From positions 142,463 to 206,462 of the forward strand of contig CAVOHM010000006.1 of the NCBI GenBank assembly GCA_963695725.1: a stretch of DNA of 64,000 bases. The letters are read 5' to 3'. The notes under the pieces are model-generated. The model was given only the letters and a program-made list of their open reading frames with translations. It searched no databases and was not told the origin of the DNA. The translations under genes and the position numbers were made by a program. Within the stretch, counting starts at the first letter, position 1. The number at the start of each line of letters is the position of its first letter. The stretch comes from an uncultured beta proteobacterium. Its GTDB lineage: Bacteria; Pseudomonadota; Gammaproteobacteria; Burkholderiales; Casimicrobiaceae. Shown here in pieces: positions 6,100-53,038 of this stretch.

Positions 6100-6802
6100 C
6101 ACAGAATTCCTTTCACCCTCGAGGGTCGCAGCGCTGAGACCGTAGAGACCCTGGCCGGCGAGTTGAAGGAGCGCGGCTGCGCGCCCGAGCAAGTCAGCTC
6201 GGTGAACTTCGACACGCCCCCGGCGTTCATCAAGAGCTGCACCGCGCAGTTTCCGAACGCCCGCATCACCTTCGACAGGTTCCAGGTCGTCGCATGCCAG
6301 CACCGCCGTGGACAAGATGCGCCGCATCGAGCAGCGCACCGACCGTTCCTTCAAGGGCATGCGCTGGTCGCTGCTCAAGGACCGCTCCCGTCTGTCGCCG
6401 GAGGCCGCGACCGATCTTGACGCCTTGATCGCCAGGATGACTGCGGTGCGTACTGCCCGCGCTTGGAGCTCCGAGGAACAGTTGCGCGAGATCCTCGAGC
6501 ACAAGCAGATTAGCGTCGTACGCGTCATGCTTCAGCACTGGTGCACCTGCGTGATGCGCTCCAAGGTCGATCCGATGAAGGAAGTCGCCGCTCTCGTGCG
6601 TAATCATCTGGAGGACTTCGTGGCTTGGGCGCAGACTCGGCAGACCAACGGTTTCCTGGAGGCTCTCAATGGCTTGTTCCAGGCAGCAAAGCGTCGCGCC
6701 CGAGGCTTCACACGGATATCCGCCATCCGGACGGTCATCTTCCAAATCGCCGGAAAGCTCGACATCCGCGTGGTCAACCCTCATGCCTGGCAACCCATTT
6801 GA
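6100..6802 (+). pseudogene. ISL3-family transposase, C-terminal ~235 codons only, with a +1 frameshift near 6290
   Basis: Two frames carry the homology. The first reads ..FTLEGRSAETVETLAGELKERGCAPEQVSSVNFDTPPAFIKSCTAQFPNARITFDRFQVV. The second reads AVDKMRRIEQRTDRSFKGMRWSLLKD...TNGFLEALNGLFQAAKRRARGFTRISAIRTVIFQIAGKLD, which is the typical ISL3 C-terminus. Confidence 0.75.
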
Positions 6803-17654: not shown

Positions 17655-19455
17655 ATGAACAAGCCCGCCGAACTGCCGCTGCCGGTAACCGGAAAACAGA
17701 AAATGACGCCCTCCGAGGCGTTCGTCGAAACGCTCGTTGCCAATGGCGTGAAGGACGTCTTTGGCATCGTCGGGTCCGCGTACATGGACGCGCTCGATCT
17801 CTTTCCGCTCGCGGGAATCCGCTTCATATCCGTTGCGCACGAGCAGGGCGGCGGCCACATGGCCGACGGCTACGCGCGCGTCTCCGGGCGGCACGGCGTG
17901 TGCATCGCGCAGAACGGGCCGGGCATCACCAACTTCGTCACCTCGACTGCGGCCGCCTTCTGGGCGCATTCGCCGGTCGTCGTGATCACGCCGGAGACCG
18001 GCAGCGCGACGCTTGGCCTGGGCGGCTTTCAGGAAACCGAGCAGTTGCCGATCTTCTCGAAGATCACCAAGTTCCAGGCGCACGTCAACAACCGCGCGCG
18101 AATGGCCGAACTCACGGGCCGGGCGTTCGACCGCGCGATGCTGGAGATGGGGCCGACGCAACTCAACATCCCGCGTGACTTCTTCTACGGCGACATCGAA
18201 TGCGAAATCCAGCGGCCGATGGCGATCGAACGCGGCGCCGGTGGCGAACGGAGCCTCGACGAAGCGGCCACGCTCCTCGCCACAGCGCGCTTTCCGGTGA
18301 TCCTCTGCGGGGGCGGCGTGGTCATGGCCGACGGGCAGGCGGCCGCGCTCGCGCTCGCTGAATTGCTGCAGGCGCCCGTTGCCAACAGCTATCTGCACAA
18401 CGACTCGTTCCCGGCGCAGCATCCGCTGTGGGTCGGGCCGCTCGGCTACCAGGGCAGCAAGGCTGCGATGAAGCTCATCGCGAAGGCCGACGTCGTGCTG
18501 GCGCTCGGCACGCGGCTCGGCCCGTTCGGCACGCTGCCGCAATACGGAATGGAATACTGGCCGAAGAACGCGAAGATCATCCAGGTCGATGCCGACGCCA
18601 AGATGCTGGGGCTCGTGAAGTCCATCTCCGTCGGCATCTGCGGCGATGCGAAGGCGGCGGCCACCGCGCTCTCGGCGCGGCTCACGGGCAAGCCGCTCGC
18701 GTGCCTCGAGAACCACGACGCGCGGCGCGCCGACATCGCAGCGGAAAAAGCCGCGTGGGAAGACCGAGCTCGACGGTTGGGCGCACGAGACCGACAAGTG
18801 GTCGGTCGAGGTTTCCCGGAATTCGACGCACATGCACCCGCGGCAGATGCTCCGCGAGCTGGAAAAGGCGATGCCCGACGGCGCGATGGTCTCGACCGAC
18901 ATCGGCAATATCTGCTCGGTGTCGAATTCGTATCTGCGCTTCGACCGGCCGCGCTCGATGTTCGCGGCCATGAGCTTCGGCAATTGCGGCTACGCGTTCC
19001 CGACGATCATCGGCGCAAAGGTGGCGGCCCCCGACCGTCCGGCGATCGCCTATGTCGGCGACGGTGCGTGGGGGATGAGCTTTGGCGAAATCCAGACCTG
19101 CGTGCGGGAAAACATCCCGGTCACCGCAATCGTTTTCAACAACGGCCAGTGGGGTGCGGAAAAGAAGAACCACGTCGATTTCTACGAAAACCGTTTCGTA
19201 GGCGTGAACCTCGACCGCCAGCCGTCGTGGGCCAAGGTGGCCAAGGCGATGGGCGCCGAAGGGCACACGATCGAGAAGCTTGCGGACGTCGGCCCCGCGT
19301 TGCGCGCGGCGGCGAGCGCGCAGGGCGAGGGCAAGACGACGATACTCGAGATGATGGTCACGCGCGAACTGGGCGACCCGTTCCGGCGCGATGCACTGGC
19401 GCTGCCGACGCGGCATCTCGCGAAATACAAGGCGACGGCGGCGAAGCGCGGCTGA
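17655..19455 (+). pseudogene. xsc: Sulfoacetaldehyde acetyltransferase (ThDP-dependent), interrupted by a net +1 frameshift at ~18762
   Basis: AAGGAGG SD followed by ATG 17655. The first frame reads MNKPAELPLPVTGKQKMTPSEAFVETLVANGVKDVFGIVGSAYMDALDLF...QLNIPRDFFYGDIECEI...NSYLHNDSFPAQHPLWVGPLGYQGSKAAMKLIA...AAEKAAWE. Homology continues in the next frame (ORF 18646..19455): TELDGWAHETDKWS...MSFGNCGYAFPTIIGAK...GDGAWGMS...TRELGDPFRRDAL. Skipping base 18762 restores one ~599-aa product. Confidence 0.85.
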
Positions 19456-24171: not shown

Positions 24172-24327
24172 CCGTGTCATGCCGAAAGCCGCCTACGCGC
24201 ATCGGCCATCGACCGTCGCGATCCTATCGGTCGTTCCCGCCCGACGCGATTCTGCTACCCGGTATCGGCATTGGATTGTACGGTCGGAACGTGAAAATGG
24301 CCTTAATGATCGACGACGGTAGCGCCC

Positions 24328-24975: not shown

Positions 24976-25771
24976 TCAGATCCGGGTCAGCAGAAAAATT
25001 CCGGCCAGAATCAGCATCCCGCTTGCGATACGCGACACGAGGACCGAGGCGGGGAACAACTTCTCGACAAATACGAACGCCGCGATGAGCGCGACCCACG
25101 CGAGATTCATGACGCCGGCCACGAAGAGCAGCAGCATCAGCGCCCAGCAGCAGCCCACGCAATAGGCGCCGTGCTCGAGCCCCATCCGGAACGCGCCGCC
25201 CGGCCCCGGGCGCCAGCGCGTGATGAAGAACTCCAGCGGGTTTCGGCACTTGTTGAGGCAGGTTCGCTTCAGCGGGGTCAACTGATACAAGCCCGCGGCT
25301 ACGAGCGCGAACGCCGAAAGCCCGGTGCTTGCCGCGGCCATTGCCGGCGTCAACAGTGATGCGCGCTCGAGCAGGGCCTGCAGCAGCGTGGCAGCCACGC
25401 TGAAAGCCGCCCAGACCAGGAGGTATGCGCCGGCGAAGATCCAGACGCTCGGCAATACCGTCCCGCGCGCGCCGTTCTTGCGCACCAAGGCGCCATACAG
25501 GAGGATGGTCGGCGCCGCGCTCGGCAGCATCATGCCCGCCATCATCACGGTCCACATGACAAAGGTGAGGGCAAGCGCGCCGGCATCCATGCGACCGCGG
25601 CATCGCGGGCATCGCCATCGACGCGTGGTCCATGCCCGTCGCGCTGCGCCACAGATAGAGCCACGCAAGGGTGACGACGATCGCGAGGCTCGCGATCGCA
25701 ATGCGGCGGTCGCGGCGCGTGGCCGCCGCGAATCCACTTTCCTGCGCCGCTTTAGTCTCTAACCCGTCCAC
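24976..25771 (-). pseudogene. DUF2182 (predicted metal-binding integral membrane protein), apparent +1 frameshift at ~25591-25597
   Basis: The N-terminal part (GTG 25771: VDGLETKAAQESGFAAATRRDRRIAIASLAIVVTLAWLYLWRSATGMDHASMAMPAMP) lies in the frame of ORF 24968..25819. The remainder (MDAGALALTFVMWTVMMAGMMLPSAAP...) lies in ORF 24976..25737. A shorter intact product from ATG 25590 is an alternative reading. Confidence 0.55.
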
Positions 25772-30272: not shown

Positions 30273-30662
30273 TCACCTGACGGTTGCGTCGGCGTGTCGC
30301 TCGTTGGGCCGAGCGACGACGAGCAACAGCGCCACCAGGGCGTGCAGCGCAACTGCCGGCCACAACAGCACGCCGAAGAGGTGTCCGACGGTACCCAGGT
30401 AAGCGAGGTACAGCGCGATCAGCGCGTTGTAGATCAGCATCGCCCAGACGGCTGGCGCATCACGCGCGGCGACCCGCCCGCTCGGCCAGCACGCCAATCC
30501 CAGCGCGAGCAATGCGATGCCGAAACATCGGCCGACCAGTGTTCCCGCACCGGAAATGTCAATCCCCAGGAGCAATGCCACGACGATCGCGGGATCGATC
30601 ATCAGGACGAGGCCCGTGCCGACCTCCGCGATCGCAGCGAACGTGAGGAGCCCTTTCAGCAT
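30273..30662 (-). CDS. Small hydrophobic membrane protein (4 predicted TM segments), unknown function
   Basis: Met at 30662 within ORF 30273..31370: MLKGLLTFAAIAEVGTGLVLMIDPAIVVALLLG..., 129 aa. It is in the same frame as, and not separated by a stop from, the arylsulfatase tail. Confidence 0.5.
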   Translation of the reverse strand: MLKGLLTFAAIAEVGTGLVLMIDPAIVVALLLGIDISGAGTLVGRCFGIALLALGLACWPSGRVAARDAPAVWAMLIYNALIALYLAYLGTVGHLFGVLLWPAVALHALVALLLVVARPNERHADATVR

Positions 30663-33170
30663 CCCGCTGGCGCCTAGTCGCGCACGCTGGCCAGCGCCCT
30701 TCTTCATGATTTCGCGCTCCTCGGCCGTCAGCTGTTCCGGCCGGAGGTTGTAGGTCAGCTTGTTGATCGTGCCGGTGAAGCGGAACGGCAGCTTGTAGCT
30801 GTCGTCCACACCCGTACGCGTGTCGATCCCGATGTCGAACGATCTCGTCGATGGACATGATGATGGGAATCGTGTGCTCGATCTTCTGCCGGGACAACTC
30901 CCTGCCATCGACCGATAGCACGCCGGTGCCGCCCTTGCCAAAGCCGGGACCGTCGTATTTGAAGTCGAACACAATCGTGTGCTTACCGGGCTTGAGCGGA
31001 TCGACCCAGCCAGTCCGCGCCTCCCACGCCGCCCTCCCAGCGGTACCGCTTCAGGTTGAGCGAGGTTGTAGACGAAGACCGGCTTGCCCTTGAGGAGGTA
31101 GAGAGCGTAGCCGGCGAAGCGGCCGCCCATCGTCGCGATCATTCCCTCCGCGCCGCTCTTGGGGATCGTCACTTCGGCGGTGATCGAGTAGTCCCTGTTC
31201 AGAATGCTCGGCGCATTGCCGACGGGAATGTTGGCGTTCTCGCCTGAGTAGGTGAACATCGTTCGCCCGGCAGTCGCGCTCGGCCGCGGTGTGAGCAGGC
31301 GCGGAAGGATCGAGTTGTCCAATGGGAGGACCTGATATTTCGCCGCCTCCGACAGGAACAGCGCCTGCATCTCCTTCAGCTTGTCGGGATTCTTGGCCGC
31401 GAGGTCGTTGTATTGCGAGTAGTCGTCGGCGATGTTGTAGAGCTCCCACTTGTAGCTCGTTCACATCGCGGCAGCTTGGCGGTTCCGAGCAGCCACGGCG
31501 GGACGGGCGGCGTCGTGGCCGCGTACCAGCCGTCGTGGTAGATCCCGCGGTTCGCGAACATTTCGAAATACTGTGTGTCGCGCTTCGATGGCGCATTGGC
31601 GTTCGCCTGGTCGAACGTGTAGGCCATGCTCACGCCCTCGATGGGCCGCTGCGCGATGCCGTTGACGGTCGCCGGCGCCGGGATGCCGGTGACCTCGAGG
31701 ATCGTCGGCACGATGTCGATCATGTGATGGAACTGGGTGCGGATGCCGCCGACGTCCTTGATGTGGCCGGGCCATGAAACCACCATGCCCTGCCGCGTGC
31801 CGCCGAAGTGCGACGCCACCTGCTTCGTCCACTTGAATGGAGTGTCGAACGCCCACGACCACGCCACGGACATGTGCGGGTAGGTCTTGTCCGAGCCCCA
31901 CGCCTCGTAATTCAGCATGAGTTCCGCCTCGGGTAGAGTCAGTATGCCGTTGTAGGCAGTCATCTGATTCGGCGTGCCTTCCAGGGTGCCTTCCGCGCTC
32001 GTGCCGTTGTCGCCACTGATGTAGATGACGAGCGTGTTGTCGAGCTTGCCCATGTCCTCGACCGCCTGGATCACGCGGCCGATCTCGTGGTCGGTATAGG
32101 CGGCGTAGCCGGCAAAGACCTCCGCCTCGCGCGCGTAGAGCTTCTTCCGGATGAGTGACAGCGAATCCCACTTCGGCAGGTTGTCCGGCCACGGGGTGAG
32201 CTGGGTATTGGCCGGGATCACGCCGAGCCGCTTCTGGTTGGCGAAGATCTGCTCGCGCAGCTTCTCCCAGCCCATGTCGAACTTGCCCTTGAACTTCTCG
32301 ATCCACTCTTTCTTCGGCTGGTGCGGCGAGTGCGTGCCACCGGGCACGTAATAGACGAAGAACGGCTTGTCGGGCGCGGCAGCGTTGAAGGCTGCTCATG
32401 TACTTGATGGCCTCGTCCGCCATGTCGGTGGTGAGGTTGTAGCCGGGCTTGCCGACCCACGGGAAGATCGGCGTCGTGTTCCGGTAACAGGTAGGGGGTC
32501 CACTGGTCGGTCTCGCCGCCCATGAACCCGTAGAAGTATTGGAAACCCATGCCCACCGGCCATTGGTCGAAAGGCCCGGCCGCGCTGTACTGGTAGGTGG
32601 GGGTGTTATGGTTCTTGCCGAACCACGACGTGGCATAGCCGTTGTCGCGCAGAATCGTGCCGATGGTGGCGCTGTCCTGGCCGATGATCGAGTCGTAGCC
32701 CGGGAAGCCGGTGGACATTTCGCCGATCACGCCGTAGCCGACCGAGTGGTGGTTGCGGCCGGTGATCAGCGCCGCGCGCGTCGGCGAGCACAGCGCCGTC
32801 GAATGGAACTGCGTGTAGCGCAAACCCGCCTTGGCGATGCGATCCATGCGCCGGCGTCGGGACGACGCCGCCGAAGGTGCCCGACACGCCATAGCCCTGG
32901 TCGTCGGTCATGATGAGCAGCACATTGGGCGCGCGCTTGGGCGGCACCACGCGTCGGCGGCCACCAGGACTTCGAATCCTTGGCGCTTTCCTTGATCACG
33001 CCGCCGAACTTCGGGGGCGGTGGCGGCAGCTGCTTGCCGTCGATGGTGGTGGTGGCGCTCGGCGAACCCGGCACGCCGGTGACCGTTTGCGCTGCGGCCG
33101 GCGCCATTGTCAGCGCGGCAGCCGCCGTCAGTCCCGCAATGATGCACATTGCACTCACGTTACGATTCAT
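30663..33170 (-). pseudogene. Large (about 780-aa type) arylsulfatase, disrupted by nine successive +1 frameshifts
   Basis: Homology is spread over all three reverse frames. It includes a signal peptide (MNRNVSAMCIIAG..), [15 protein letters not shown], the formylglycine motif [42 protein letters not shown]..., ...FDFKYDGPGFGKGGTGVLSVDG... and ...FRFTGTINKLTYNL. Frame switches are at ~32954, 32848, 32487, 32387, 31468, 31458, 31061, 31006 and 30843. Confidence 0.85.
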
Positions 33171-36240: not shown

Positions 36241-37227
36241 CTATTTGCTGGAAAATACCTTGTCGAAGTGCTCGAGGTTCGCCTTGCGCAGCGACGTCGC
36301 CGCCTTGTAATCGTAGGCAAAGGTCTTCAGCGTCTTGACGTCCGGCAGGCCCGGCGGCGGCGCCATGTCGCTCCTCGCGCTGCGGCGCTTGTCGATGTCG
36401 ACGATCATCTTGTGCGCTTCTTTCGAGTTGATGAAATCCATGAACTTCCTGGCGTTGGCAGCATTCGGACCGCCCTTGACGATGCCGCTCGCGTCGTTGA
36501 TGAGCGCGGTGCCGTCCTTCGGATAGACGGCTTCGACCGGGAAACCGTCGAGCTTGCTTGCGAGTATGTTGAACTCGCTGGTGAGCCCGATCGGGATCTC
36601 GCCCTTGGCGACGTTCTGGTACGCGAGCTTCGAACTCGTGACGAACGTCGCGGTGCCGATGACCTTGTCCATCCCGCCCCAGCCGTACAGTTGTAGCATC
36701 TGCTGCATCTGCGAATAGGCCGACCCCGACTGCGCCGGATTCGCCATGACGATCTTCCCCTTGTAGTCGGGCTTGGCAAGATCCATCCACGTCTGCGGCG
36801 CCTTGTCGAGCGGCATCATCTTCGTGTTGACGATGAACGCCTGGAAGTTGGTCGAGAAACCGTAGTACTTGTGATCCGGCCCGACCGCGGTGCGCGGGAA
36901 AGCCGCGTCTTCCTTCGACTTGTAACCCTCGAAGAGGTCGATCGCGGCATCGAATACGTCGATGTCGGGTCCCACCAGCACGTCGGCGCGCGGATTGGCT
37001 TTTTCGGCCTGAATGCGAGTGAGGAGTTCACCGCTGCCGCCGCTGATCACATCGACCTTGATGCCGGGACTTTGCTTCTGGAACGCCTCGACGAACGCTG
37101 TCATCACCTTCGGACTGACGGCGTTGTAGACAACGACCGATTGCGCCTGCGCCGAAGAGACGCTGGTCAACGTACCCGCCGCCACGACCGCGGTCAGCGC
37201 CGCGGCGACTCGATTGCCGATCTTCAT
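36241..37227 (-). CDS. ABC transporter periplasmic solute-binding protein (Fe3+-type family)
   Basis: ORF 36241..37227, 328 aa. It has a signal peptide (MKIGNRVAAALTAVVAAGTLTSVSSAQA) and is co-oriented with the ATPase and permease. Confidence 0.85.
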   Translation of the reverse strand: MKIGNRVAAALTAVVAAGTLTSVSSAQAQSVVVYNAVSPKVMTAFVEAFQKQSPGIKVDVISGGSGELLTRIQAEKANPRADVLVGPDIDVFDAAIDLFEGYKSKEDAAFPRTAVGPDHKYYGFSTNFQAFIVNTKMMPLDKAPQTWMDLAKPDYKGKIVMANPAQSGSAYSQMQQMLQLYGWGGMDKVIGTATFVTSSKLAYQNVAKGEIPIGLTSEFNILASKLDGFPVEAVYPKDGTALINDASGIVKGGPNAANARKFMDFINSKEAHKMIVDIDKRRSARSDMAPPPGLPDVKTLKTFAYDYKAATSLRKANLEHFDKVFSSK

Positions 37228-37260
37228 TTCCCCATCCTCCTTGTTGGACGACCACGGCCG

Positions 37261-39237: not shown

Positions 39238-40677
39238 GTGAACGCGCCGAATGTTGCCGCGCAGTCCGTCGAAACGCCCGACATTGCCGTGGCCGCGCTT
39301 GTCGCGCGTTCCCGCGCCGCGCAGCGCGAATTCGAGACATGGACGCAGGAGCGCGTGGACGAGGCCGTCACCGCGGCTGCGTGGGCGATCGTCGAGCCCG
39401 GCCGCAACCGCGCGCTGGCGGAACTCGCCGTGCGCGACACGGGTCTCGGTGACGTCGCCGACAAGGTCGCGAAGAACCGGCGCAAGACGATCGGCCTCCT
39501 GCGCGATTTGAGGGGCGCAAGATCGGTCGGCGTGATCAGCGCGGATCCTGCGCACGGCCTGGTCGAGATCGCGCGGCCGGTCGGGGTTGTCGCCGCGATC
39601 ACGCCATCGACGAACCCCGCCGCGACACCGGCGAACAACATCCTCAATGCGTTGAAGGGCCGCAACGCGATCATCCTGGCGCCGTCGCCGAAGGGGCAAT
39701 CCACGCTCGGCCTGTTGCTGGAATACGTGCACGCGGAACTGGACCGGGTCGGCGCGCCCCGTGACCTGGTGCTGAAGCTTCCCGCGCCGACGTCGCGCGA
39801 AGAGACCTACGCGCTCATGCGGCAGGCGGATCTCGTCGTCGCGACGGGGTCGCAGAACAACGTGCGCGCCGCCTACGAAAGCGGGACGCCGGCCGTGGGT
39901 GTCGGCGCCGGCAACGTCGCGGTGATCGTCGACGAGACGGCCGACGTGGCCGATGCGGCCGCAAAGATTGCCCGCTCGAAGACGTTCGACCACGCGACGT
40001 CCTGCTCGTCCGAGAACAGCGTGATCGCGGACGCGAGCGTGTACGCAGCGCTGCTGGCCGCGCTCACCGGCGAAGGCGGCGTGCTGCTCGACGCCGGCGA
40101 AGCGCAGCGGCTGGAGACGGCGATGTTCGGCGGCGGCAAGCTCGCGAGCGCTTTCGTCGCGCAGTCCGCGAGCGCGATCGCCGCGCTGGCCGGGCTCGAG
40201 CGACCGGCCGTTCGCGCCGCGAAGTTCCTGCTCGTCGCCGAAACCGGCGTAGGCGCGGAGCACCCGTTTTCCGGCGAGAAGCTGTCACCCGTGCTGGCGC
40301 TCTATCGCGCTGACGATTTTGCCGCCGCCGTTACGCTCGCCGAGGAGCTGTTGCGCTACCAGGGCGCGGGGCACTCGGTCGGGCTTCACACGCGCATGCC
40401 CGAGCGCGCGCTGCATCTGGGATTGACGCTGCCGGTCTGCCGTGTGATCGTCAACCAGGCGCACTGCTTCGCGACGGGCGGCAGCTTCGACAACGCGCTG
40501 CCATTTTCGCTGTCGATGGGCTGCGGCACCTGGGGCGGCAACAGCATTTCGGACAATCTCAACTACCGGCACTTCCTCAATATCACGCGGGTCGTGCATC
40601 CGCTGCCTCCGGAGCGCGTCCACGAGCCGGCCGACGCGGAATTCTTCGCGAGCTATCGCAAGAAGCACGGGCTGTAA
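39238..40677 (+). CDS. CoA-acylating aldehyde dehydrogenase (EutE/PduP/SauS-like)
   Basis: GTG-start ORF 39238..40677, 479 aa. It carries ITPSTNPAATP and the catalytic Cys context HATSCSSENS, and lacks the features of hydrolytic ALDHs. Confidence 0.85.
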   Translation: MNAPNVAAQSVETPDIAVAALVARSRAAQREFETWTQERVDEAVTAAAWAIVEPGRNRALAELAVRDTGLGDVADKVAKNRRKTIGLLRDLRGARSVGVISADPAHGLVEIARPVGVVAAITPSTNPAATPANNILNALKGRNAIILAPSPKGQSTLGLLLEYVHAELDRVGAPRDLVLKLPAPTSREETYALMRQADLVVATGSQNNVRAAYESGTPAVGVGAGNVAVIVDETADVADAAAKIARSKTFDHATSCSSENSVIADASVYAALLAALTGEGGVLLDAGEAQRLETAMFGGGKLASAFVAQSASAIAALAGLERPAVRAAKFLLVAETGVGAEHPFSGEKLSPVLALYRADDFAAAVTLAEELLRYQGAGHSVGLHTRMPERALHLGLTLPVCRVIVNQAHCFATGGSFDNALPFSLSMGCGTWGGNSISDNLNYRHFLNITRVVHPLPPERVHEPADAEFFASYRKKHGL

Positions 40678-40688
40678 CGGGGTTACCG

Positions 40689-42198
40689 ATGCAGACCCTG
40701 CGTGACGTGATCGATCGGCACGCCGATGCGCAACCGCGCGCGCCGTTTCTGTTCGCGCCAGAGACCGGCACCGAGTTGACCTACGCGAATCTTCGGGCGG
40801 ACGCCCGATCGCTTTGCGCCGAACTTTCCGCGCAGGGGATCGCGCCTGGCGAAGTGGTGTCGTACATGCTGCCCAACGGCGTTGCCGCCGCCAGCGTCTT
40901 CCTTGGCGGGATGTACGGCGGCTACATCGTCTCGCCGGTGAGCCTTCTCGCGCAGGATGCGCTGATCGAACACACGCTCGCGCACTCCGAAACGCGGATC
41001 GTCTACGCTGCACCCGAGTTCGTCGCGCGCCTGCGCGCGATCATCGCGCGGATCGGCAGCCGCGCCGTGGTACGGCCGGCGTCGCCGGACAGCCTCGACC
41101 TGGTTCCCGCATCCGGTGCCAGGTCGGGGCCGGTCCCCGTGCCCACGACACCGGCGATGCTGATGTACACATCGGGCACCACCGGCACGCCCAAGGGCGC
41201 GCTGTTATCCCATGGCAACCTGATTCACGCCGGCCGGTCCGTTGCAACTGCGCACCAGTTCACACCCTCCGATCGCGTCCTGTCGTCGCTGCCGCTCTAC
41301 CACGTGAATGGCCAGAGCATCGGAACCGTCTCGCCCCTCGTTTCGGGCGGGAGCATCGTGATCCCGCATCGCTTCAGCGCGTCGCGCTGGTGGCCGCTCG
41401 TGGAGCGCTATCGGCCGACGTGGCTCAACGTCGTCCCGACCATCATCGCCTACCTGATCAACGGACCGGACCTGACACCCGCGCAGGCCGCGGCATGCGC
41501 CGGCATCCGGTTCGCCCGCTCGGCGTCGGCGCCGTTGCCACCGGAGCATCATCGCGCGTTCGAAGCGCGCTTCGGCATCTCGGTGCTGGAGGCGATGGGG
41601 TTGACCGAGTGCGCATCGGTTGCGTTCGCGAATCCGCTCGACCCCGGCGAGCGCAGGATCGGCTCCCCGGGCCGGCCGCTGGGCATGGAGGCGCGCGTCC
41701 GGGCGCCCGACGGCAGCGACGCTGGCGGATGGAGCGCGCGGCGAGATCGAGCTTCGCGGCGACAATGTGATGCTCCGTTACCACAAGGATCCGGACGCGA
41801 CGGCTCGAACGCTGCACGCCGGCGGCTGGCTTGCCACCGGGGATCTCGGTTATCGCGACGCCGACGGTTTCTATTTCATCACGGGCCGGCTGAAGGAACT
41901 CATCATCAAAGGTGGCGAGAACATTGCGCCGCGCGAGATCGACGAGGCGTTGCTGGCGCACCCTGCCGTGCTCGAGGCGGCGGCAGTCGGGATTCCGGAT
42001 CCGGAATACGGACAGGAGATCCTCGCGTGCGTCGTGCTGAAAACGGGCGCCGCGTGTACGGAGGCCGAACTCCGCGCGCATTGCCTCGCAGTGCTCGGCC
42101 GCTACAAGACTCCGAAGGCGTTTCGTTTTATCGCGGAGCTGCCGAAAGGGCCATCGGGCAAGGTGCAACGACTGAAGCTCGTGACGGCCGGCGGTTGA
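40689..42198 (+). pseudogene. AMP-forming acyl-CoA synthetase/ligase (SauT-like), net +1 frameshift at ~41718
   Basis: Frame 1 (ORF 40689..) carries the AMP motif MYTSGTTGTPKGA and runs to ...EARVRAPDGS. Homology continues in ORF 41620..42198: TLADGARGEIELRGDNVMLRYHKDPDAT...GWLATGDLGYRDADGFYFITGRLKELIIKGGENIAPREID...KTPKAFRFIAELPKGPSGKVQR. Confidence 0.85.
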
Positions 42199-43285: not shown

Positions 43286-43369
43286 GCACGTCGTACCGGC
43301 GCCGCGGCTGCAGGGGCGGGCCGCGGCCGCTTGCGTTGCCCCGCTCCTTTGAAATACTTGACACTGGTC

Positions 43370-52407: not shown

Positions 52408-53038
52408 ATGGCGCATCACGAATTCGCGTTGCCCGTCACCGAGGCCGCAGGTGCGCGCGCTGGTGGTCGACGACACGGTCGCGTTGAATGGCGCGCTATT
52501 CGGAATCCGCGACGCCACTCAGATCGCGCTCTTCGATCGTGGCCGCACGACGCGCTTCGATCTCGCCGGTCACGCCGTCATTCATACGGCACCTAACGTG
52601 AAGAAGGTCGCGCCATCGCCGGCGCACCCTGTGGGCTATGCGCCGATCTGCGTCGGAACGACGACCAGCGCGCGGATGGAGCGCTTCACGCGCCCGTTGT
52701 TGAGCCGCTGCGGCGTGCGCATCGTCATCGGCAAGGGCGGCCTCGGTGCCGAATCGGCGGCGGCGTTCCGCGAACTGGGCGGCGTCTATCTCGCGATCGT
52801 CGGCGGTGCGGCCGCGCTGGAGACCACGTGGATCGAGGCGATCGAGGATGTCGACCTCGACGACCTCAATCCCGAGAGCCTGTGGAAATTCCGCGTGCGC
52901 AACTTCGGTCCGCTGCGGGTCGCGATGGACAGTAGCGGCGGCAATCTCTACGCGGTGGTCGACACGGACGCGCGTGCGAAGCGTGCGGCGGTGCTCGCGG
53001 CGCTGGGCGTGGGATCGAGTTCACCCGGCCGCTCTTGA
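52408..53038 (+). pseudogene. Class-I Fe-S hydro-lyase beta subunit (TtdB/FumA C-terminal-domain type), net +1 frameshift after codon ~14 (or a shortened product from GTG 52451)
   Basis: ATG 52408 (MAHHEFALPVTEAA) is one frame off from ORF 52451..53038 (VRALVVDDTVALNGALFGIRDAT...GPICVGTTTSARME...VIGKGGLG...ESLWKFRVRNFGPLRVAMDSSGGNL). The joined sequence aligns with TtdB N-termini. Confidence 0.7.

Follow-up and report, generated by a model that had tools for sequence, protein, structure and literature searches.

We analysed a window of 64,000 nucleotides from an uncultured beta proteobacterium (contig CAVOHM010000006.1, positions 142463 to 206462 of the forward strand); the source contig measures 340,339 bp, and all of its closest relatives come from metagenomes. 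Six genes in the window carry single extra bases that interrupt their reading frames. A type I (aryl)sulfatase gene carries ten of them, and one each is found in xsc, an AMP-forming CoA ligase gene, the gene for the beta subunit of an Fe-S hydro-lyase, a DUF2182 membrane protein gene and the remnant of an ISL3 transposase (Table 1).

Table 1. Affected genes, their extra bases and two intergenic differences, in window coordinates.
Feature	Position	Strand	Remark
Type I (aryl)sulfatase gene	30674-33170	minus	828 codons once ten extra bases are read through; PF00884 on pieces
Sulfatase extra base 1	32953-32955 (~32954)	minus	gene strand CCG[A]CGC; can be read as tandem CCG/CCA alleles
Sulfatase extra base 2	32848-32849	minus	gene strand GC[G][C]ATG
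Sulfatase extra base 3	32486-32488	minus	gene strand CT[G]TTAC; T duplication also possible
Sulfatase extra base 4	32387-32391 (~32389)	minus	gene strand CC[T]TCAAC; T duplication possible
Sulfatase extra base 5	31468-31469	minus	gene strand CC[G][C]GAT
Sulfatase extra base 6	31455-31456	minus	gene strand GA[G][C]TAC; 13 nt from extra base 5
Sulfatase extra base 7	31061-31062	minus	gene strand CT[C][G]CTC
Sulfatase extra base 8	31003-31004	minus	gene strand GG[T][C]GAT
Sulfatase extra base 9	30840-30843	minus	gene strand GAG[A][T]CGTTC
Sulfatase extra base 10	30697-30699	minus	one G in AAGAA[G]GGCG; frame shifted past stop 30676-30674
xsc (sulfoacetaldehyde acetyltransferase)	17655-19455	plus	599 codons through one extra base
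xsc extra base	18761-18763	plus	nucleotide alignment, 15 homologues
AMP-forming CoA ligase (sulfoacetate-CoA-ligase-like)	40689-42198	plus	502 codons through extra base
CoA ligase extra base	41716-41720	plus	window GGCAGCGACGCTG vs relatives GGCACGACGCTG
Fe-S hydro-lyase beta subunit	52408-53038	plus	209 codons through extra base
Hydro-lyase beta extra base	52445-52447	plus	window GCC[G]CAG vs relatives GCGCAG
DUF2182/PpoB2 membrane protein	24976-25770	minus	264 codons through extra base
DUF2182 extra base	25592-25594	minus	gene strand TC[G][C]ATG; relative TCCATG
ISL3 transposase remnant extra base	6290-6291	plus	window GTC[G]CAT
Intergenic extra base, 16th in window	24175		one relative's contig without the base; 4 nt past cupin gene stop
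Only opposite-direction case	37226-37229		relatives +1 A/T in run between ribosome-binding site and ATG 37227

Read through its extra bases, the sulfatase gene runs from an ATG at 33170-33168 to its true stop, a TAG at 30676-30674, without internal stops, and the product has a signal peptide and a CSPTR active-site motif of the C-x-P-x-R formylglycine type. PF00884 matches the pieces with E = 1 × 10-27 and 4 × 10-18. In a MAFFT nucleotide alignment with 15 homologues, ten columns hold a base in the window alone, and no column lacks a base in the window sulfatase alone; the frame path along the minus strand is 1>2>0>1>2>0>1>2>0>1. The sequence-only reading had reported nine frame switches in this gene, all in the same direction. 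Each of the nine lies within 0-3 nt of an aligned site and the common direction holds (ten single-base insertions, no deletions), while their number has to be raised to ten. The tenth extra base (~30699), overlooked in that reading, deprives the gene of its stop codon, so that the frame continues into the next gene. No common motif was found among the ten sites.

Apart from the insertions, the sulfatase shows no substitution decay. The restored protein of 828 aa keeps all 125 positions that are invariant among 80 homologues and 327 of the 328 columns conserved in at least 95% of them, the single deviation being mild; it ranks among the best-conserved members of the family and is 82-85% identical to the ten closest intact homologues of the 80 loci. 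Conserved columns and stops, checked against the same 80 homologues, gave no sign of relaxed selection beyond the indels. Neutral decay to the point of ten indels predicts 14-28 damaging hits in this gene if substitution:indel ratios of 5-10 are assumed (P ≤ 1 × 10-5).

For the five other genes, comparison with homologues and profiles confirmed in every case the net +1 that had been proposed from the letters of the DNA; for hydro-lyase beta the sense of the shift stood and its position moved slightly to the left of the 52448-52450 first given. In xsc, the Pfam TPP_enzyme N and M domains share one frame and the C domain lies in the next. The joined products have the length of their homologues, with 502 aa and no gapped columns for the CoA ligase, 209 aa for hydro-lyase beta (where the homologues read TEAQVRAL) and 264 aa for DUF2182. 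The last two are publicly called as truncated proteins of 195 aa (P0121) and 204 aa (P0248). In the ISL3 copy, a remnant in which the transposase domain is found only in part, positions 88 and 89 of the Pfam profile are contiguous across the frames, and the joined piece aligns with intact ISL3 transposases as a single piece of equal length.

That the neighbouring genes are untouched, as had been stated, is supported by the adjoining permease of 567 aa, which lies 150 nt from the sulfatase and recurs letter for letter on a 2.4-kb contig of an independent public assembly, and by a GC3 frame scan, which detected no further same-strand frame switches in the whole window. The remaining changes of GC3 frame mark separate genes, according to Pfam for sdhB/C/D, the hydratase alpha/beta boundary and two methyltransferases, and according to annotation rather than Pfam for dctQ/dctM, tctB/tctA, an enolase-family gene/glmS and glmE/sdhB. 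At 50-51.5 kb and at 27.7 kb, frameshifts of -1 were considered and rejected, since Pfam shows separate genes there (sdhB, a pair of Sdh_cyt genes and two methyltransferases). The only case in the opposite direction concerns a homopolymer between genes.

To these data we added short-read metagenome contigs aligned to the window. They come from relatives and not from the source strain, and are 88-99% identical to the window overall, at least 95% identical at xsc, DUF2182, the ligase and the hydro-lyase (96-98.5% for the crossing contigs listed) and 88-97% identical at the sulfatase sites. Eleven of the 15 coding sites are crossed, each crossing contig being without one base there. Every crossing contig is one base short at 18761/3, 25592, 41716, 52445, 30840/3, 31061/2, 32387-91, 32485/8, 32848/9 and 32951/4; no ungapped crossing of an extra-base site was seen among these contigs, which at 31004 and 31456/31469 are clipped instead. 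Over 48 kb compared at an identity of at least 95%, the differences listed include ten places where the window has an extra base and one of the opposite kind, in an intergenic A-run. The ISL3 site, where the depth of contigs from relatives is ~0.2, is the least tested. A search for the source reads among public sequencing runs found none, the matching metagenomes sharing no more than 23% of the sequence words and a nanopore-only search being empty.

At four or five sites, different relatives omit different adjacent bases (xsc, 32848/32849, 31061/31062 and 30840/30843, with ACG/AGC at the ligase), so that the window reads as the union of two natural alleles; the identity of the alleles is taken from gap placement in the contig alignments, and at the remaining sites one allele or none was seen. 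By gap placement, the window has GAAGACC at the xsc site where relatives have GAAGCC (X25, X26) or GAGACC (X27), and both shorter forms are also present among more distant homologues. At extra base 2 of the sulfatase, one contig of run X25 is without 32848 and another without 32849, and their gaps suggest that GCC and GCG alleles both occur. Similarly, 31061 or 31062 is omitted at extra base 7, depending on the relative, and at extra base 9 one relative omits 30840 and another 30843, the ACG (Thr) and TCG (Ser) readings both agreeing with homologues. In the ligase, the AGCG of the window is a superposition of ACG (Thr) and AGC (Ser), residues that are counted among the homologues. Elsewhere in the sulfatase, relatives omit 32951 or 32954 (extra base 1), the base at 32485/32488 (extra base 3) and one at 32387-32391 (extra base 4). 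Near extra bases 5 and 6 the contigs are clipped at 31454-31456, and contig depth drops from several hundred to ~0 over 31460-31489; at extra base 8 many contigs are clipped at the site, their alignments beginning at 31005/31008.

Taken as a whole, the coding frameshifts have a one-sided spectrum [15/15 are single-base +1 events, with no deletions; two-sided P = 6 × 10-5]. The earlier tally of 14 out of 14 was right about the single direction and becomes 15 out of 15 with the site at ~30699. Nor are the insertions confined to homopolymers, as had been remarked: only 5/15 could have arisen by doubling an adjacent base, whereas random bases would give 52%. On the assumption that duplications make up 80% or more of natural +1 events, so low a count has P = 1 × 10-4. 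Because at least ten of the 15 do not duplicate a neighbour, replication slippage does not explain them. At ten sites the sequence can be read as a tandem of two different bases in a synonymous position, compared to 43% for random insertions, which is a marginal excess (P = 0.06); a more lenient test, in which either adjacent deletion should give the same protein, is uninformative, with a null rate of 97%. The extra bases are also strongly clustered, 10/15 being inside the sulfatase, which makes up 4% of the window (P = 2 × 10-11).

These results indicate that the extra bases have almost certainly no biological origin, and we regard it as fairly probable that all 15 are consensus errors of the assembly, made where natural variants were merged, and not mutations. 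The sequence-only reading had left the choice between consensus error and an unusual mutational process, and the first is now strongly favoured by the lack of substitution decay, the mostly non-duplicative form of the insertions, their absence from relatives at the 11 sites crossed and the superposed alleles at several sites. A technical origin, for which we rely on the relatives and on the logic of the sequence, is well supported, not proven. Since errors of this kind leave the genes themselves unharmed, the sulfatase, xsc, the CoA ligase, hydro-lyase beta and DUF2182 are probably intact in the organism.

We infer that the assembly is long-read or metagenomic and that the mechanism is allele merging. 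The 340-kb contig, draft or metagenome-derived and belonging to an uncultured soil or sediment bacterium, would have been assembled from the reads of a mixed population. Where alleles differ by one or two adjacent substitutions, an aligner or consensus caller may score an insertion plus a deletion, and a consensus that retains the bases of both alleles would end with a net +1. As merging adds bases only where those of both alleles are retained, it would explain the pure insertion spectrum. The ten errors in the sulfatase, in turn, may be explained by the abundance of foreign sulfatase sequence and by the strong conservation of the family across phyla. On conserved segments of the sulfatase, foreign contigs with an identity of 94% or more reach a summed depth of 300-1100, against ~3-6 on the organism's own flanks, and the family shows 80-85% protein identity across Alphaproteobacteria, Verrucomicrobia, Acidobacteriota, Planctomycetota and others. 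Reads of the family from other organisms would thus be recruited onto the window gene in large excess. Among the 80 sulfatase loci no synteny of the flanks was found beyond the gene itself, plus a small downstream membrane gene in three loci. All 80 of these other copies are unbroken, ~45 of them from long-read soil MAG projects, which implies that cross-recruitment does not generally damage the gene; the idea that this sulfatase always breaks in long-read MAGs was dropped.

The errors could also be plain insertion-biased consensus noise with no link to population alleles, arising from low local coverage, from an unpolished long-read consensus or from a polisher that adds bases in G+C-rich contexts, and we hold this to be possible, if rather unlikely. 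Such noise would be compatible with a single direction, mostly non-duplicative bases, the absence of substitution decay, the low share of duplication-compatible sites relative to random bases and the further extra base in intergenic DNA at 24175. It is also favoured by a C[G]C context on the gene strand, observed at 5-7 of the 15 sites against 7% under the null (P = 0.002, post hoc and uncorrected for the many contexts examined), and this excess speaks against allele merging insofar as it may reflect a contribution specific to the chemistry or the caller, which merging does not predict. However, noise does not explain why the window is the union of two relatives' alleles at xsc, 32848/9, 31061/2 and 30840/3, or why two thirds of the events fall within one gene when the permease, at a distance of 150 nt, is flawless, and noise of the raw-read type would bring substitutions too, of which none are seen.

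An improbable explanation is that the insertions are real and that six genes, including four of organosulfur metabolism, were lately inactivated in the strain by an unusual insertion-only process. The bases are present in the deposited sequence, the damage is limited to gene bodies, as selection on the neighbours would also yield, and the intact genes of relatives, at 88-99% identity, would be compatible with a strain-specific loss. An organosulfur theme does unite xsc, the ligase, the hydro-lyase and the sulfatase, but it reflects the base rate, since such genes occupy most of the window. Ten indels in the sulfatase without one damaging substitution or nonsense codon do not agree with real inactivation at ordinary substitution:indel ratios, nor does the lack of deletions, bacterial pseudogenes being reportedly deletion-biased (Mira, Ochman and Moran 2001; Kuo and Ochman 2009); two thirds of the insertions do not repeat a neighbouring base, and the exact superposition of two existing alleles at several sites is not expected of polymerase error. 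A mixture, with true frameshifts in the ISL3 remnant and perhaps in one further gene and artefacts everywhere else, seems to us very improbable: the ISL3 copy has a partial transposase domain and its site is without coverage by relatives, but its extra base has the same non-duplicative form as those at other sites, and intact transposases align with the joined piece from end to end. Least probable of all, a process of the lineage might add real single bases, mostly non-templated, where alleles differ, for example by faulty heteroduplex processing after recombination of diverged gene copies; this would amount to a new insertion-only mutational signature and a very recent inactivation of an organosulfur gene set. 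Programmed +1 ribosomal frameshifting of the prfB type was rejected because the homologues are unshifted (80 for the sulfatase, 15 for xsc, and those of the ligase, hydro-lyase and DUF2182, all single-frame), and the lesions do not fit genuine pseudogenes formed by neutral decay, being neither mixed (15 insertions, no deletions, no internal stops) nor of the slippage type (5/15 duplication-compatible).

If the extra bases are consensus errors from merged alleles, then functional status should be assumed for xsc, the sulfoacetate-type CoA ligase, hydro-lyase beta, DUF2182 and the sulfatase, which bears on the reading of the window as an organosulfonate-degradation island. Public protein calls are truncated for at least two genes (195 vs 209 aa and 204 vs 264 aa). 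For draft and metagenome-assembled genomes, frameshifts in one direction, together with the absence of amino-acid damage and with tandem alleles at the sites, provide a cheap artefact flag that works without reads, and such errors would be expected to concentrate in very abundant, horizontally spread gene families, this sulfatase being an example.

In frameshift-rich long-read assemblies of bacteria and metagenomes, single-base indels split conserved genes and public callers report truncated proteins, as they do here (P0121, P0248); frameshift-aware annotation and the checking of protein lengths against references address this general problem. The classic residue of nanopore sequencing is homopolymer deletion, whereas the window has no coding deletions and two thirds of its events lie outside homopolymers. 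True pseudogenes, such as those of Mycobacterium leprae and Rickettsia, combine nonsense and missense changes with indels of both kinds, among which there is a bias towards deletion. The window is similar to these in having several frameshifts in one gene next to intact neighbours, but the sulfatase differs from them in carrying +1 insertions only and in its near-flawless amino-acid sequence (327/328). In a collapsed PacBio assembly of Trypanosoma brucei Tb427, nearby allelic variants shifted the read alignments and led to indel errors that truncated ORFs (PMC8445201). Both there and in our window, apparent frameshifts truncate ORFs and the errors come with essentially no substitutions. For Tb427, a diploid eukaryote, the alleles are two haplotypes and the reads were available, while here we propose strains of a bacterial population and foreign homologous reads; neither a restriction to insertions nor an accumulation of ten errors in one gene is described for Tb427. 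In Tb427, separating the alleles restores the genes (PMC8445201).

The 15 coding frameshifts in the window all consist of a single extra base (two-sided P = 6 × 10-5), which confirms the one-directional +1 pattern claimed by the sequence-only reading and widens it from 14 to 15 of 15, or to 16 if an intergenic site is included. In the type I sulfatase (30674-33170, minus strand), whose gene pieces match Pfam PF00884, the conserved peptide follows the minus-strand frame path 1>2>0>1>2>0>1>2>0>1, and when 15 homologues from other genomes are aligned with it at the nucleotide level, a base is present in the window alone at ten columns and missing from the window alone at none. The first nine sites are the nine frame switches recognized earlier, and the total of nine has to be raised by one, as a tenth extra base was found at ~30699, where it abolishes the stop codon so that the open frame continues into the next gene. 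Omitting one base per site restores a frame of 828 codons from ATG (33170) to a TAG stop (30676-30674), with a signal peptide and the CSPTR active-site motif present.

Single extra bases and their positions (nucleotide alignment with 15 homologues for the sulfatase, alignment against 15 homologues for xsc)
Feature	Position	Strand	Remark
Sulfatase extra base 1	~32954	minus	
Sulfatase extra base 2	~32849	minus	
Sulfatase extra base 3	~32488	minus	
Sulfatase extra base 4	~32389	minus	
Sulfatase extra base 5	~31469	minus	
Sulfatase extra base 6	~31456	minus	
Sulfatase extra base 7	~31061	minus	
Sulfatase extra base 8	~31004	minus	
Sulfatase extra base 9	~30840-30843	minus	
Sulfatase extra base 10	~30699	minus	new
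xsc extra base	18761-18763		exactly one
Hydro-lyase beta extra base	52445-52447		GCC[G]CAG

The other five genes behave in the same way. The N and M domains of xsc share one frame and the C domain lies in the next; the joined CoA ligase has 502 aa, the same as its homologues, with no gapped columns; and the joined DUF2182 protein (264 aa) has homologue length. The joined hydro-lyase beta subunit reads MAHHEFALPVTEA-QVRAL, matching its homologues also in length (209 aa), and its insertion stands, slightly to the left of where it had been placed. Across the two frames of the ISL3 remnant, Pfam profile positions 88 and 89 are contiguous, and the joined piece gives a single match of equal length to intact transposases. 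For hydro-lyase beta (52408-53038) and DUF2182 (24976-25770) the contig's public proteins are only N-terminally truncated (P0121, 195 aa, and P0248, 204 aa, respectively), so the frameshifts have already passed into protein databases. A homology-free GC3 frame scan revealed no additional same-strand frame switch across all 64 kb; some of the other frame changes are separate genes by Pfam, and the remainder were counted as such following the first-stage gene notes. The adjacent permease has a letter-for-letter copy in an independent assembly.

We compared these sites with contigs from low-coverage short-read metagenomes, which contain 12-23% of the words sampled from the window's flanking regions. 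The crossing contigs belong to relatives: their identity is 96-98.5% at the four single-gene sites and, across the sulfatase sites, 88-97%. One base is omitted by every contig crossing 18761/3, 25592, 41716 or 52445, and likewise by every contig crossing sulfatase sites 30840/3, 31061/2, 32387-91, 32485/8, 32848/9 and 32951/4; contigs are clipped at 31004 and at 31456/31469, which lie close together, and none of the relatives' contigs was seen to pass ungapped over an extra-base site. Among the single-base differences listed over 48 kb at ≥95% identity, the window holds an extra base at ten places, one of them intergenic (24175), and is one base short at a single place, 37226-37229. Position 24175 lies 4 nt beyond a cupin gene's stop codon (gene at 23.8-24.17 kb); the contig of one relative is missing a base there, possibly marking a sixteenth extra base, in non-coding DNA. 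At 37226-37229, between a GGAGG ribosome-binding site and the ATG of gene 36241-37227, the window has A3 versus A4 in relatives from three metagenomes, a difference that either strain variation or an undercalled homopolymer could explain. Near the start of a tctB-like gene, a 710-nt contig from run X27 omits 19 nt at 43347-43367 with long flanks on either side, which may reflect a genuine difference in length among strains.

At several sites the relatives differ in which of adjacent bases they omit; the allele identities given here are deduced from gap positions, not from contig sequences. The xsc site in the window reads TGG GAAGACC GAG. Without 18763, as in contigs from runs X25 and X26, it becomes GAA GCC (Glu-Ala); without 18761, as in the X27 contig, it becomes GAG ACC (Glu-Thr); both versions are found among more distant homologues, so that both alleles are real and the window is their letter-by-letter union. 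The window is likewise a union at 31061/31062 and, with ACG and TCG forms, at 30840/30843, and also at 32848/32849, where GCG and GCC forms occur in one sample. In the ligase, relatives have ACG (Thr) and the window AGCG, consistent with a union of ACG and AGC (Ser); both Thr and Ser rank among the three most frequent residues at that alignment column. A tandem reading of two different bases at a synonymous position fits 10 of the 15 sites, against 43% for random insertions (P = 0.06), an excess that is suggestive only.

The extra bases are very probably an artefact of some kind, and we favour, with some reserve, the merging of alleles in the consensus as their source. The pattern is what would be expected of a consensus caller that splits a substitution into an insertion and a deletion when aligning it, and then retains the bases of both alleles. 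In the aldehyde dehydrogenase gene, an X27 contig lacks a base at 39959 and gains one after 39963, a compensated pair of the adjacent-variant type at which allele merging could make a frameshift.

Ten of the 15 events fall within the 4% of the window occupied by the sulfatase (P = 2 × 10-11). Its nearest proteins share 80-85% identity with it and belong to Alphaproteobacteria, Gammaproteobacteria, Verrucomicrobia, Acidobacteriota, Planctomycetota, Myxococcota and others, the family holds 70-85% protein identity across at least eight phyla, and no flanks are common to the window and the homologue loci. Homologues are often multicopy per genome, and the gene often stands in two or three tandem copies (three at locus L010; two at L038, L059 and L074). 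Soil and sediment metagenome contigs ≥94% identical to its conserved segments reach a summed depth of 300-1100; the depth over the organism's own flanks is 3-6. The sulfatase thus has the look of a gene under strong constraint that has been transferred widely, and in soil metagenomes it is extremely abundant; in a sample of this kind, foreign alleles would flood any consensus step that recruits reads precisely at this gene. The other copies are unbroken in 80 of 80 cases, many from long-read soil MAGs, so the damage is peculiar to this assembly. Immediately downstream, a small membrane-protein gene (30273-30650, minus strand) without a Pfam match recurs alongside the sulfatase at three or more unrelated loci (L008, L025 and L067), which suggests a two-gene unit.

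Plain insertion-biased noise, also an artefact, is a less likely source, although the context C[G]C, over-represented in a post-hoc count, may indicate a caller-specific component. That the bases are real mutations is quite improbable. Read as gene decay, they are contradicted by intact conservation: against 80 homologues the read-through sulfatase retains all 125 invariant columns and 327 of the 328 that are ≥95% conserved, has no internal stop and is among the best-conserved members of its own family. Under ordinary substitution:indel ratios, drift long enough for ten indels predicts 14-28 damaging substitutions, and the probability of one or none is <10-5. Bacterial pseudogenes are deletion-biased, and there is no deletion among the 15 coding frameshifts; moreover, ten of the 15 are not explicable as copies of a neighbouring base, which excludes slippage as their source, and the relatives' contigs that cross the sites are without the bases. 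The least probable reading of all is a mixed one, with true breaks in the ISL3 remnant and perhaps in one further gene.

The suspicion of assembly error voiced in the sequence-only reading is thus supported by the intact conservation, the mostly non-duplicative bases, the relatives' contigs and the allele unions. The genes should be handled as intact, and the pattern is of practical value both as a quality-control signature and for a corrected annotation of the organosulfur gene island. The contig measures 340,339 bp, and all of the organism's relatives are metagenomic. In a collapsed PacBio assembly, alignments shifted by nearby allelic variants produced indels truncating ORFs (PMC8445201), and that indel error is the pattern we propose for the window.
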